Shown: piece by piece, positions 3,224-61,511 of the stretch
Numbering within the stretch: the stretch's first letter is position 1
Layout: each line of letters begins with the position of its first letter
Position numbers and translations under genes: made by a program
The notes under the pieces: generated by a model
The model's input: the letters and a program-made list of their open reading frames with translations, nothing else
Told to the model about the DNA's origin: nothing
The model's database searches: none
Assembly: GCA_045837725.1 (NCBI GenBank)
Contig: JBEWZL010000151.1
Span: 62,001-126,000, forward strand
Length of the DNA: 64,000 nt
Reading direction: 5' to 3'
From: Vermamoeba vermiformis
Lineage: Eukaryota

Positions 3224-6200
3224 TTAAGGCGTCCAAGCCGTATTAATGGCATTAATATTGGACGAGAACTGTTTGATTGCTTCATTGAAGGCATTTTGGT
3301 CCTAAAAATAGGAAAAATAATTAATACGGGTAAACTAATATCATTTATGAGTTGGTGAATGCTTATAGGCCTTATTAAATATATATTAATGAATTTCTGA
3401 GAATTAATTTTTACCTCGTGAGCCAGATGCGCCAATCGCAACAAGGTCACTAAATCAGCGTGTTGAATCTCCAACGCGATATCGTACGGTGTCTTAGCGT
3501 CGTTTGTTTTCATGTCAGCTGAAGCTCCTCGCTTTAATAATAAAGCAACGATATTCGTAAATTTGTTCAGGACGGCAAAATGGACCGGCGCCCATCCTTT
3601 CTCTATTTAAAAATGATTATTAGTAGTTCATTTTATGGCTCATCAAATATATCTAACGATAATATTTGGCTTATAATTTCGTAAAAGTAAGATAATAAGA
3701 AGGTTCCTTCGTACCGTCTTGCGGATCGACTTTGGCGCCGTTTTGGATCAACAATTCAACGATGGAAGGCTGGCCAGCCAACACTGCAAAATGAAGCGCT
3801 GTTCGTTTATGTTCATTTGGAGCCTGATAGTTAATTTCAGCTCCTTGGGCAATTAGCCTGACAGAAAAATACAAGTCAGTACGCGATCAGTGTAGATCTT
3901 CCAAATAAGGAAATACTATCGTACCTATAAACGCCCTCAATGCTACCAGTCTTAACGAATCGAATTAAGTCCTAGAAATAAATTGTTGTCAGAAATATAT
4001 TTGATAAAATAATTTTTCAGGTTGCGTCGTACCTGCTCTTGCGACAGACCCAAGTATGGCGGGACGAATTTTTTATCGACATATTTGGCTGTAATAAATG
4101 CTGTTCGGATCTCCCTACAAGAATACGATGCGTTAGATACTTTAGAACTAATACCAAGTACGCATCAGGTACGTACTTTGCGCACCCGGGAGTGGCTTTG
4201 ACGACTTTTTGTGTCGGTGTGTACTTGTTTTCATACAGTTGATTTGCTTTTTCGTTACCAACTAGCTTCAAAATCTACATAATAAACATTAGAACTATAT
4301 TACTAAAAAAGACTCATGAATTTAGATCCTAAACCGGATCTCGCTAGTAATATCAGACAGTACCAATATCCAATGGGTATTAAAATATCTATAAGGGTAC
4401 TTACCTGCCATAATTCGGGCTCTAAAGTGTCAAGTGTCAAAGATCTGACACGCGAGAAGTTTGTGCCGAGACTGCGGTGAATGCCCGAGCAGTCAATGCA
4501 CAATAAGATACCCAAGTTAATACTGCACCAATCAGGTTCTATATACAACACAATTAGTCTCCATAATGATATTCTACGAGTCATATTTTAGCAGCAAAAG
4601 TTTGGGCTTGTCAAGGATGACACGTGTCATATTTTGACATGTGTGAGTACGTACTCTCTGCATCGCAATCGGCGCAAAATCCGTTCTTTTTGTCGAGTCC
4701 GTACAGCACTTTGAGCATGTGCGGCGAGTCAGTGCCTGTTGCTGCACCAGAGAGCGTGCCACTGGAAGACAACGAGCCTAAAACCAATCGATTAGAACAT
4801 CTTCGAGTATCATACGTAATGCTTAAATATAGTCTATTATATTAATAGAAAAGATACGTACTGGTTGGTGACTTGCGATTGGGCGGCAACGGCGAGTCAG
4901 GGCCAGAGAATTCTCCGCTCTTTTTTCGTCTCAAATCTTGACGACTAAGATAAATAATCGTTAGTAGAGTACTATTAAATATAATAATATAATAATATAT
5001 AATCCATTTAAGTTTATAAGTTTTTCTATCGTACCTAAGTACTGGTGTCGTAGGATTATGGTGGATGGAATGTGCGGTGGCGTTTTGAAGTACGGCAATC
5101 CATTGGTTCATGTTTTCCTATAATATTATATCAATAAAGTTATTTTTGGAAATTAAAATCGAAAAAATCGCTGTAGTAAAGCCGAAATTTATCTTCGGCT
5201 AAATTCTATGCAATTAATAAGAATGATGTCATACCTGATTCTCGGCTTGAAGAATAAGACTTTCATAAGGACTAATTACTTCGAAACAGAAATTTCTGCT
5301 CGTATCAGTGCTAACTTTGACGGTGCAGACCATCAGATCGAGCGTTCTAGGAGCCTTAACTCTCTTATCATAATCCTATATTGCAGTAATAGAGTTAATA
5401 TATCGTTTCTGGAATCAATTATACGAATTTGAATCGGAGTTGGAATTTATCCGATCTGGATCGAGCGAACGTACTTTGTAAAACTGGAGTCTTCCTTCTT
5501 CGATAATAAAGAATCGTCGTTTCCAATTGCCCTTCTTCTTTTTCATGAATAAATATCCTTGGCAAGTAATTTCTTCTTTGTTTGTTGGTGCAGGCGCCGG
5601 ATTTACTTCCTTTGGCGTACTGACGCTCAAATTAAATCTACTTTCGTTTAACTTTGCTTGTTCCGAGGCAAAATCCTTTCGATACTATACAAATAGAGCA
5701 TTAGAATACTAATTTAACGCTATTACATTATTAACACGTCCAAATAATTTAAATCGACATTTTGTCGGTTCAGAAAAACAATTGCGCCATTATAAATAAA
5801 GAGCTAGTACTAATGTAATACTATTGTATATTAAGTATGAATATGAATATCGCAATTAAGTTTAATTAAAATAAAAATGAGGTTGATCCTCGAAATACTT
5901 ACTTGGTTTATTTGCGTTGTTAATTCGTTCATATAGGGCTCCAATCCTTGTAATAACTCATGTCCATGTTGAAAATATTTCTTCATCGAGAACATGTACG
6001 TGTTCAATCGCTCTAATAACAGCAGTTTTTTGTCGGCTTGAATTTCGTTCAATTTTGAAACAATATCAATGCTCGCTAGACGATAGCTCTTTTTGCCTTC
6101 AATGACATCTTGCTCGCCCTAAAAAAGGAAATATTAATTATTAAGAGCATCTTTCATGAAAATAATGATATGACAGCTTTTTGACATTATTGTCCGAGCC

Positions 6201-58864: not shown

Positions 58865-61511
58865 TTACACGTTAAGAGTGGTTAAAAAGATGGATGCGAT
58901 GTTTTTGTACTGCCAAATATCACCTTCTAGCCGCTTGAATGTAAGTCCCTTCAAGTTCTTAAATCCTTTCATTTTGACGATTTCAATTGAAAAAACGATC
59001 TTTTCAAGTGCTGGATTGTCTTCGTCATCGTTCAACATCGTCAATTTGAATTCATACCGAGAAAGCTTATCACAAAGCAACATTGAATTTTGAGCAGCCG
59101 AAATAATCTTCTTTTTGATCTCTTTCGTGGATTTTGACGACGTTGTGTCGCAATTGAATGACGATGAAAGTTTAATGTTGCGTTGTTGTTCGGGATCGCT
59201 GCTCGTAGAAATTTCTTCGTTCAGTGAACTCTCAATAGACGATCGTCGCGAATTAGCTTCGCTGCCAGCGGATTCACGAATGATTCTGTTCAGTCTATGA
59301 GCCAACGTCTCTAAGGGTCCTTTAGGAGATCCGGTTGGCGTTGCTGAAACCGAAGACCGACGTCGTTTTGATGATCGTTCAGGTGTCATGCTTCGCTCAG
59401 GCGTATGACTGCGCTCAGGAGTGTGACGTCCAGTAGTTTGGCTTCGTTGTCGCATGACGCGTTGAGCTTCGTCGCTTGACTTAAGCATGTCGGTCATGAT
59501 TTGGTCCAATTGTTCGTCGTAGTTGTCAGCGCTAGTCTTCAAATCAAAGTTCATTTCTTTGCTATCGCGAGTACTAAATAACCAACAGTTAGCAATTTGA
59601 TACGATTGCAAAACGATGACACGTGTCAAAGTGTCAAAGTTTAACGTACCTTTTCTTGAGCTTGTGTTGAGATTCACGCAATGACTTTCGGCTCTTTGCT
59701 GATACCAGGTCTGAATCTTCATTGGATAAGCTTCGTCGGAGAGCTTGTTCAGGAATAGGATTGGTTTTCGAGTGACGCAACTTTTTGGCCGGATCGGATG
59801 CTGGAGGATGACTCTCTGAGTCAGTAGTATCAGCTGGAGCGGTTGAGCGGCGACTAAGGCACAATTGATAGGCAGCTACGACTTGCTTATTCTTGCTCTT
59901 CATTATTGCTCGGCGATGCGAAATTTTGTCTTCGAATCCAAGAGCGACAACTTCGCGCATGATGGATTCGTCTATTTGTGATACTGTCTTGAACTTAGGT
60001 ACATATGATACTGGAGGCTCGTTATAGTCCTTCAAGATCCAAGGGTGAACGCGGATGTCGTTCAACGTGATCCTTTTTTTGGGATCGGTGGCCAACATCT
60101 TATGGATTAATTCCTTGAGCTCTATAAATAACAACTGTTAGTAATCCATAAATTCTAAGAATAGAGCGGATATTTTTGCACCAGCGGCTGCGGATTTGGT
60201 TTTACCTTTTGACACTTCAACTTCATAATGAAGACCAGTAGTGATGCGCTTGATCATCTCATACGGAGTATCCGCATCGAAGGGTTGCTTTCCGTTGACC
60301 TAATTTGAAAGAATTGGGTGTCAGATTGTGAGTTGGAACATCCAGATCGAGTACATACTAAGCAATAAAGAATGATACCAAGAGCATAAACATCAACGGG
60401 AGGGCCTCCATAGCTTTGTCCGTGAAGTATTTCGGGAGCAGCTGCAAGAAATATGTTAAATCAAGTCTGCACGTGCGTTCAATTTCGGATCCAATTTTGT
60501 GAATCGAAGTTGTATACTGAAAACTCGTTTTAACGGACGTACCATAGTGAAGACTGCCGCAAAATGTTGAGAACTTTTGAGGAGTAATAAAATTAGCCAA
60601 TCCAAAGTCGGTTATCTTGATGTTGTTAGCGTCATCGAGAAGCAAATTTTCAGGCTTCAGATCTCGATGCACGATCAAGTTGAAATGGCAGTACTCGAGC
60701 GCTGATACGATCTATAAGAATTTTATTAGTATTGATGTTATATTAGACGCAAAGATTGACATTTCACAACGATTATTAAGGTGGAAAAATAATTCGACCA
60801 AAATGTACGAATTTAATGGCAAGCTAAATATAGAAAAACTAATTCGGTTAAATTCATCTGTAGATCGAAAGAGCTTCGAATTAAATATGATCCTATTAAG
60901 CAATGTAATAATGATTTTTTGGTGCTGACGTACTTGTCGAAGGAATTTTCTTGCAACGCTTTCAGTTAATCGACCGTTATAAACAATGTAGCTGAACAGC
61001 TCGCCGCCGCTAACATATTCAAAGACCAAATAAGTGATCTGTTTGTCTTCATCTTCAATAATCTCGAGCAACTTGACAATGTTTGGATGGTTCAACATTA
61101 TCAATGCTTTTTTCTCTCGTTCAATCATTTCCATCTCGCGTTCATTTTGCGCTTTTCTATGCTTCAAAATTTTGATGGCGACCTGAAATTGAACGCAAAA
61201 AAGTAAGTTTCTATTTTTAGCAAATCCGGATCAATAGAGGGGAGGTCAAACGACAAGAATATATACCAATCGTAATATTGCAAGAAAGTCATGGTTTCGA
61301 AAAAGTAAACTTAAAAGAATGAAAAACTTACGTAAGTTTGTGTTTCGGGATCCAGCGCTAATTTGACAGTACCAAAAGCACCTCGGCCTAATAGTCTAAC
61401 AAATTCATATCGACCAACCTTCTTTTTTCCGCCGGTCAAGCTTTGGCCGCTATTATTGAGTTCCGGATTCACTTCGCTGGTCGCTAACTCGTCGTAATCA
61501 ACGGAAGTCAT
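58865..61511 (-). CDS. MARK/KIN1-like kinase K3
   Basis: [34 protein letters not shown]-type repeats, KA1. Confidence 0.93.

Follow-up and report, generated by a model that had tools for sequence, protein, structure and literature searches.

The 64,000-nucleotide (nt) stretch of Vermamoeba vermiformis DNA analysed here (contig JBEWZL010000151.1, positions 62,001 to 126,000; hereafter the window) carries predicted genes for an ArfGAP protein, a dehydrogenase, a lipase and a tandem series of kinases, and within it a 12-bp palindrome, TGACACGTGTCA, recurs in eight exact copies (Table 1). Exons and introns were annotated with a small self-trained parser written for the window, in which intron length was limited to 300 nt, and Pfam searches on single exons served as a check. 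The parser introns (n = 107, median 96 nt) have GTAAGT or GTACGT donors, CTAAY-like branch sites and YAG acceptors, and the annotation divides the window into 50% exon, 19% intron and 31% sequence between coding regions. The GC content is 0.307 in introns, 0.432 in exons and 0.364 in the between-gene class, an intermediate value indicating that unannotated coding pieces are still hidden there. The predicted gene products read sensibly. Seven of the eight copies fall in six spliceosomal introns, as judged from these models and from the continuity of Pfam domains across exons, the eighth lies shortly past a stop codon, probably in a 3' untranslated region (UTR), and none lies in a predicted exon; the intronic, post-stop and non-exonic placements agree with an earlier reading of the same DNA (the original prediction).

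Table 1. Copies of the palindrome and associated features, in window coordinates.
Feature	Coordinates	Location and strand	Core start in intron	Remarks
Exact core	4618-4629	intron 4539-4654, ACAP-type (BAR-PH-ArfGAP-ankyrin) gene, minus	26	
Degenerate second copy TGACATGTGTGA	4635-4646			two mismatches; 5 nt from core 4618
Exact core	6288-6299	intron 6119-6399 (281 nt), same ArfGAP gene, minus	101	between two BAR-domain exons
Exact core	23429-23440	intron 23352-23505 (154 nt), medium-chain dehydrogenase/reductase gene, minus	66	
Exact core	42619-42630	15 nt downstream of stop codon 42646-42648, gene 42646-44446, minus		between convergent genes
Isolated half-site TGTCA (example)	43645-43649			
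Exact core	43654-43665	intron 43568-43839 (272 nt), minus	175	GGTGTCAAAA on either side
Exact core	43794-43805	intron 43568-43839, minus	35	pairs with 43654 in predicted RNA fold
Two-copy intron	43568-43839	minus		predicted fold pairs both cores and neighbouring bases, looping out the interior
Exact core	50280-50291	intron 50258-50344 (87 nt), class-3 lipase gene, plus	23	ACATGTCA directly after
Exact core	59617-59628	intron 59574-59649 (76 nt), third KA1-domain kinase paralog, minus	22	
Same kinase intron in paralogs	52958-53016; 63129-63188			without TGACACGTGTCA
KA1-domain kinase paralogs	51155-53662; 54420-57025; 58865-61511; 62438-64000	plus; plus; minus; minus		MARK/AMPK-like, tandem
Single-exon paralogs, ~500 amino acids	13979-15517; 18488-20050; 20681-22270	minus; minus; plus		C-terminal membrane anchor
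Donor GTACGTAC (examples)	4647-4654; 1215-1222; 13273-13280			self-complementary

The palindrome is far more frequent than the composition of the window allows. Not a single copy appeared in any of 100 dinucleotide-preserving shuffles of the window, and Markov models of orders 1-3, trained on the non-coding compartment of our annotation, gave expectations of 0.0006-0.0024 copies, bracketing the ~0.002 per 64 kb originally proposed for the eight copies, all of which were recovered. A k-mer census identified TGACACGTGTCA as the most repeated 12-mer, the next unrelated one being AT-rich with five copies, and when all 8- and 10-bp palindromes were compared with a second-order background, GACACGTGTC (8 seen, 0.01 expected) was the sole gross outlier in non-coding DNA. 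When as many as two mismatches were tolerated, the window gave 15 matches, against 1.86 ± 1.19 (maximum 5) in shuffles; these comprised the 8 exact copies and 7 with two mismatches, and the whole window contained no one-mismatch variant. All eight ACACGTGT octamers of the window lie within a TGACACGTGTCA core, and the 18 CACGTG sites outside the cores all have other flanks, 9 of them reading TCACGTG. CpG is not depleted in the window (observed/expected 1.27). Taken together, these data establish TGACACGTGTCA as a genuine palindromic element that recurs exactly, and far from randomly, in the non-coding DNA of gene bodies.

The models are borne out by Pfam at each host gene: the exon directly after the 4618 intron starts at position 23 of the ArfGap profile (match 23-67), that after the 6288 intron is BAR_3, ADH_N and ADH_zinc_N exons surround 23429, a Lipase_3 exon precedes 50280, the Pkinase domain ends in the exon before 59617, and GlfB_C is matched weakly by the final exon preceding 42619. 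The label 'MDR' of the original prediction stands for a medium-chain dehydrogenase/reductase and not for a drug pump. The gene at 42646-44446 carries three copies (42619, 43654 and 43794). Preference for introns over intergenic spacers is suggestive, not established: the probability of finding at least 7 of 8 non-coding matches in introns is nominally 0.006 on our rough annotation, and a hand estimate that takes half of the non-coding DNA as intronic and counts six independent events gives P ~0.02-0.04. Core starts within introns are not clearly non-random for introns this short, and a preference for their first 35 nt (4 of 7 copies, ~1.8 expected by hand) was considered and found not to exceed expectation. 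Searches of the window with Rfam, at gathering thresholds, and with a tRNA scan returned nothing, so that the motif introns host no Rfam family. Among 8-bp palindromes, the donor GTACGTAC was over-represented in introns (4 against 0.22 expected), about one third of all donors being GTACGT rather than GTAAGT.

The immediate surroundings of the cores carry further signal. A Watson-Crick pair at ±7 extends the palindrome in 5 of the 8 copies, as proposed; the G.T pairs described for 6288 and 43794 are present in the DNA letters as read, but since both copies lie in minus-strand genes, the sense RNA would have A.C mismatches instead. Isolated TGACA/TGTCA pentamers start within 40 nt of the cores not only at the six positions known from the original prediction (4635, 6279, 43645, 43682, given there as 43683, 50295 and 59632) but also at 4609 and 42654, and 6 of the 8 cores have at least one. 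The remaining non-coding DNA predicts 0.75 such half-sites within 25 nt of the cores and 1.2 within 40 nt; the seven (P = 1.4e-5) and eight (P = 3.8e-5) observed correspond to an overall enrichment of ~7-10-fold. TGACA ranked second, after ACATG, among all 512 pentamers beside cores, and ACGT, CGTG and CACGTG were not enriched there. Some of these neighbours look like local duplications, namely the tandem GTGTCAAA-GTGTCAAA at 59623, on the edge of the 59617 core, the adjoining near-duplicate words ACGTGTCA-ACATGTCA at 50284, and the second copy by 4618. The wider flanks had been described as unrelated, with no obvious transposon. This holds for five copies, which have nothing in common beyond core and half-sites, whereas 42619, 43654 and 43794 have the 8-mer TTTTCACG/CGTGAAAA in common, close to the core, and are thus probably not independent. 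No 9-mer is common to the flanks of three or more of the eight sites, and inspection of the flanks revealed neither target-site duplications nor terminal inverted repeats at any copy.

The reading we favour, with a probability of about 0.4, is that a dimeric DNA-binding protein, active within gene bodies, uses TGACACGTGTCA as a site of high specificity. A homodimeric, sequence-specific protein would recognise the 12-mer on double-stranded DNA, one TGACAC half per monomer, at sites located in non-coding parts of transcription units (introns, 3' UTR). Once bound, it could influence the host gene or a neighbour by enhancing or silencing from within the gene, by anchoring chromatin or a boundary, or by obstructing elongating polymerase. 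We infer the binding itself and its effect, as well as the protein family, which would be either a pair of homeodomains of the three-amino-acid loop extension (TALE) type or an extended basic leucine zipper (bZIP) or basic helix-loop-helix (bHLH) protein on the G-box core. The TGACA-NN-TGTCA layout, the G-box/E-box core and the clustered extra TGACA/TGTCA pentamers all favour a protein site. Recognition appears to extend beyond the E-box to all 12 positions, since the site is a 12-bp dyad lacking one-mismatch variants and since CACGTG outside the cores is flanked differently; TGACA-type recognition is favoured because the pentamer enrichment comes without ACGT. The absence from promoters and the lack of any near-variant, otherwise unexplained, lead us to suspect a gene-body role that needs full-affinity sites, and the single copies, which have no notable RNA structure, argue against a purely RNA role. 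Protein binding, already put forward in the original prediction, is thus the best single reading of layout, core and half-sites, but the 'dense intragenic code' imagined there is not established by eight copies in one window.

Two families of known sites come close to the palindrome. The structural report on TGIF1 describes a crystal structure in which two homeodomains sit on ATTGACAGCTGTCAAT, the monomers on opposite faces and the inverted TGACA motifs 2 bp apart (PMC6158717). The window element resembles the TALE double site TGACAGCTGTCA in being a 12-bp palindrome with two inverted TGACA 2 bp apart (8/8 copies), in sharing 10 of 12 bases with it, and in the occurrence of the monomer TGACA alone beside the cores; by contrast, its centre is CG in 8/8 copies and not GC, all 12 positions are invariant, and it is intronic. 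The canonical TGACAGCTGTCA does not occur in the window. Double sites of the TGACAGCTGTCA type are also known for MEIS/PKNOX, and TGACACCTGTCA is a JASPAR entry for PKNOX1/2, although we found no paper stating so. For the second family, the reference is the HY5-bound plant G-box TGACACGTGGCA (PMC4415419). Here the likeness lies in the CACGTG (ACGT) core, present in 8/8 copies, in the dyad symmetry and in the identity of 11 of 12 bases with that G-box, and several metagenome contigs of other organisms mix the exact word with TGACACGTGGCA-type variants. The window nevertheless has no intact-core flank variants (0 of the 18 other CACGTG sites), its neighbouring half-sites lack ACGT, and its copies are intronic, none of them promoter-proximal as far as coding-sequence models define promoters. 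The weak GlfB_C match and the ACAP-type ArfGAP gene also suggest an amoebozoan-like and not a plant host. The abscisic acid-responsive element ACGTGTC and the Hac1 unfolded protein response element UPRE-2 are further elements of the ACGT type. In the main texts of an open-access library, no paper was found that treats the word as a motif. TGACACGTGTCA, the 10-mer and both 9-mers within it, and ACACGTGT combined with 'intron' matched just plant G-box papers, primers and the Widom 601 sequence, consistent with the earlier statement that the element is not described.

Several observations weigh against a protein site. Eukaryotic transcription-factor sites are normally degenerate, which makes eight exact copies against no one-mismatch variant unusual, and the central dinucleotide is CG where the canonical TALE site has GC. 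By the coding-sequence models, intergenic spacers ahead of start codons contain none of the eight copies, and those inside genes occupy middle or 3' positions, never 5' ones; regulatory sites of compact genomes usually lie in the spacers upstream of start codons. Short local duplications that create neighbours would equally yield the half-site enrichment. Finally, the two-copy intron and three metagenome intron examples pair into intron-spanning helices, which suits an RNA role.

Such an RNA role is the alternative that survives best, and we regard it as somewhat unlikely. Two copies in one pre-mRNA would form a 12-bp duplex near the intron ends, clamping the splice sites and bringing the 5' splice site to the branch or 3' site, a lone copy with a half-site would form a small hairpin, and splicing efficiency or intron retention would be affected. 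In agreement with this, all eight copies lie in sequence that is transcribed and non-coding by the models (7 intronic, 1 just past a stop), and the motif is present in both of the longest introns predicted (281 and 272 nt, under the 300-nt limit). The minimum-energy fold of the two-copy intron reaches -43.2 kcal/mol with the copies paired (z -2.45, 2 of 200 shuffles as stable), and this intron ranks 4 of 107 (z -2.13) in a folding comparison of all introns. As a group, motif introns fold slightly better than the 101 others (one-sided Mann-Whitney P = 0.034), but this value rests mainly on one intron, and the five single-copy introns of the six have unremarkable folds (z -0.07 to -1.22, ranks 18, 31, 34, 44 and 58 of 107). 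A lone 12-bp palindrome yields just a 4-bp stem, and the single-copy introns show short local stems. The helices do not count as independent evidence, because two palindrome copies within one folded sequence will necessarily pair. The A.C mismatches expected in the flanks, the otherwise unconstrained position inside introns (+22 to +175) and the presence of the word inside apparently coding sequence of another eukaryote, as LTRV/VTRV, also speak against an RNA element. Intron-bridging stems as such are familiar from the 'zipper' between 5' splice site and branch point in long yeast introns and from AC/GT repeat pairs at teleost intron ends. The window intron 43568-43839 and two metagenome introns described below (L029, L033) resemble them in that a complementary pair near both intron ends would shorten the effective distance between splice signals; they differ in using one universal self-complementary word and not intron-specific complements, and 5 of the 6 window introns have a single copy. 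Copies near opposite intron ends were found in 1 of the 6 window introns and in L029 and L033. RNA pairing is physically certain where two copies share an intron and leaves 5 of the 6 window introns unexplained. The hairpin or cruciform signal suggested originally finds a strong long-range helix in the two-copy intron, but is weak for single copies, whose introns are no more stably folded than the rest.

The same word clusters in public sequence from elsewhere. We searched for pairs of cores separated by 100-130 nt, a distance that occurs once in the window and for which chance co-occurrence is essentially nil, and obtained 58 loci in metagenome contigs and 2 in a prokaryote genome collection of 596 billion bases; viral contigs, searched with a gap of 0-30 nt, gave none. 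The total of 58 is uninterpretable without a control palindrome, since any word in a repeat would be found. With a required gap of 100-130 nt, moreover, copies in introns of 150-230 nt necessarily come to lie close to the ends, which further limits what such introns say for an RNA clamp. The 58 loci form 33 sequence families, none alignable to the window, with 247 copies in 276 kb. Sorting the flanks of one pair per family (29 rows, 28 from the metagenome and prokaryote collections and 1 from the window) gave ~10 direct tandem repeats with periods of 19 to ~140 nt, ~6 that belong to longer inverted repeats, and ~10 with unrelated flanks like those of the window. At least 10 unrelated tandem arrays, from different samples and with different spacers, are each built around TGACACGTGTCA, which may be no more than any 12-mer would show; their periods are 33 nt (L002, L015, L016, L020, L050), 30 nt (L019), 27 nt (L044), 19 nt (L051), 47 nt (L009), 21 nt (L059), ~57 nt (L043), 116 nt (L004) and 136-143 nt (L006, L026, L038). 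In the L019 array the core alternates with a second perfect palindrome of 18 bp, CAGCGGTTATAACCGCTG.

Among the families with unrelated flanks, one GC-rich family (L005, L008, L011, L013, L024, L028, L040; GC 0.67-0.69) is phage-like, with 2 of 6 open reading frames (ORFs) matching PHROGs and weak similarity to actinophage HNH genes. It carries 10-16 copies per ~10 kb at gene junctions, mostly as GTGACACGTGTCAC, and L040 (1-10291, 10.3 kb) has 16 exact copies against one one-mismatch variant. The copies lie between minus-strand genes, ~20-30 nt upstream of GAGAGGAA-like ribosome sites, so that the family looks like a genome-wide operator array; this junction placement suggests that the word is used as a protein-site-like element elsewhere. 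The TGA of the motif sometimes seems to act as a stop codon or to belong to the first codons of a gene.

Contigs of other eukaryotes contain TGACACGTGTCA in dispersed clusters with unrelated flanks, and there one-mismatch variants of the sort expected for binding sites are common (TGACACGTGGCA, TGACACGTGACA, TGACACCTGTCA), which favours a protein site. These variants, together with copies in reading frames (LTRV/VTRV), make the copies of other eukaryotes look more like a degenerate G-box-type site than those of the window. Three contigs provide intronic examples. In L029, a DENN domain (profile 4-132 and 147-186) is split by a ~157-nt intron with three copies in it or at its edge, at +13, at +44 and 7 nt before the AG, of which the outer two pair (z -3.25, 0 of 200 shuffles). 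In L033, copies ~10 nt after GTAAGA and ~45 nt before YAG pair as well (z -3.48, 0 of 200 shuffles), and L027 has one copy 17 nt into a 65-nt intron read by eye. In L048 (3200-3700), the word and near-variants occur five times in ~400 nt inside an ORF that matches a ubiquitin hydrolase (UCH) domain with a large insertion, translated as VTRV, LTRV, VTRV, VTRL and VTPV, which suggests DNA- or RNA-level pressure even within coding sequence of that organism. The 4.8-kb contig L053 contains a TALE-class homeobox exon (Homeobox_KN, E = 7e-20) at 2657-2902 on the plus strand and, besides it, three exact copies (3317, 4300, 4423) and three one-mismatch copies; this may be coincidence, or autoregulation if TALE proteins read the site. 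The core is followed by AAGTGTCAAAGTT and then AAC both at window positions 59629-59646 and at ~2545-2562 of L033, in an unrelated intron of GC 0.39. Homology between window and metagenome flanks was considered and rejected: 64 shared 10-mer pairs compare with a mean of 35 at random window positions (P = 0.11), and since this sharing is not above control, no homology is claimed and the AAGTGTCAAAGTT match may be chance. The three single-exon paralogs of ~500 amino acids (Table 1) have no Pfam match, and a collection of 5.8 billion clustered proteins yielded only three homologues (identities of 93%, 51% and 49%); Protein Atlas gave no usable match for the 512-amino-acid, surface-protein-like ORF of that family, and a metagenome scan with the alignment of the family returned no locus and hence no syntenic orthologous intron, so that the metagenome collection probably lacks the species.

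These occurrences bring in a wider reading, which we consider doubtful: TGACACGTGTCA could be a universal self-complementary intron element of several unrelated uncultured eukaryotes, or else a 'stoperator-like' operator of gene bodies. As a universal element, two copies near the intron ends would zip the intron shut, and single copies would await a partner in the transcript or a dimeric protein. As an operator, it would let a dimeric repressor stall RNA polymerase II inside transcription units, mirroring the gene-junction placement in the phage-like contigs. Cluster A mycobacteriophages carry such stoperators, many copies of an asymmetric repressor site inside transcription units. The likeness is an exact operator-sized word in non-coding gaps of transcribed regions, with a phage-like family using this very 12-mer; the difference is that stoperators are prokaryotic or viral and asymmetric, and polymerase blocking at the eukaryotic sites is not indicated by any result. 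If true, either version would be an intron-resident signal of a kind that we did not find described.

It is more improbable still that the copies are the residue of a small duplicating or mobile DNA, such as the core of an element resembling a foldback or a miniature inverted-repeat transposable element (MITE), or a product of slippage or duplication, which would have spread into tolerant non-coding DNA with no function of its own, selection removing insertions into exons. Introners and MITEs do populate introns, and the window shares with them a short sequence recurring in introns of unrelated genes. Such an origin would account for the flank word common to 42619, 43654 and 43794, for the placement of 43654 between two GGTGTCAAAA words, for the 8-nt duplications at the core edges of 59617 and 50280 and for the degenerate copy by 4618; in the metagenomes, longer inverted repeats have it in the middle or at one end (L003, L014, L004, L041/54/55/57), and the tandem arrays are built on it as well. 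Unlike introners and MITEs, however, the window copies have no family-wide shared flanks, terminal repeats or target-site duplications, and if the flanks have decayed beyond recognition a neutral 12-mer should have decayed too, yet eight copies are exact and none differs by one base. CpG is not depleted in the window, but this gives a neutral site no protection. The four tandem kinase paralogs have conserved intron positions, the first and fourth with nearly identical intron sequence, and only the third has the palindrome. As two paralogs have the same intron without TGACACGTGTCA, the intron is older and was not created by the word.

Chance, an effect of base composition, or an assembly or sequencing artefact such as a linker sequence is excluded for practical purposes by the shuffles and the Markov expectation (at most 0.003 through order 3), by the location of the copies inside ordinary introns with normal splice and branch signals and not at contig-like breaks, by several independent DNA runs, all of one sample, that contain the greater part of the 42-51 kb region (0.93 and 0.89 of it), and by the clustering of TGACACGTGTCA in unrelated public contigs.

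In compact protist genomes, control sequences are usually taken to be confined to short promoters, and introns to be filler between splice signals. An exact 12-bp word, apparently strongly constrained, in introns of unrelated genes is at odds with this picture, and its recurrence in introns of other uncultured eukaryotes points either to DNA binding within gene bodies or to a generally used way of closing introns through RNA. TGACACGTGTCA probably serves as a protein recognition site whose general kind is known and whose location is unusual; the more novel possibility is that its copies act by pairing with one another in pre-mRNA. Should it be an ordinary transcription-factor site, it would still open a very clear view of a single regulon in an organism that has been little studied; sites so exact and so rare by chance could be enumerated without a weight matrix.

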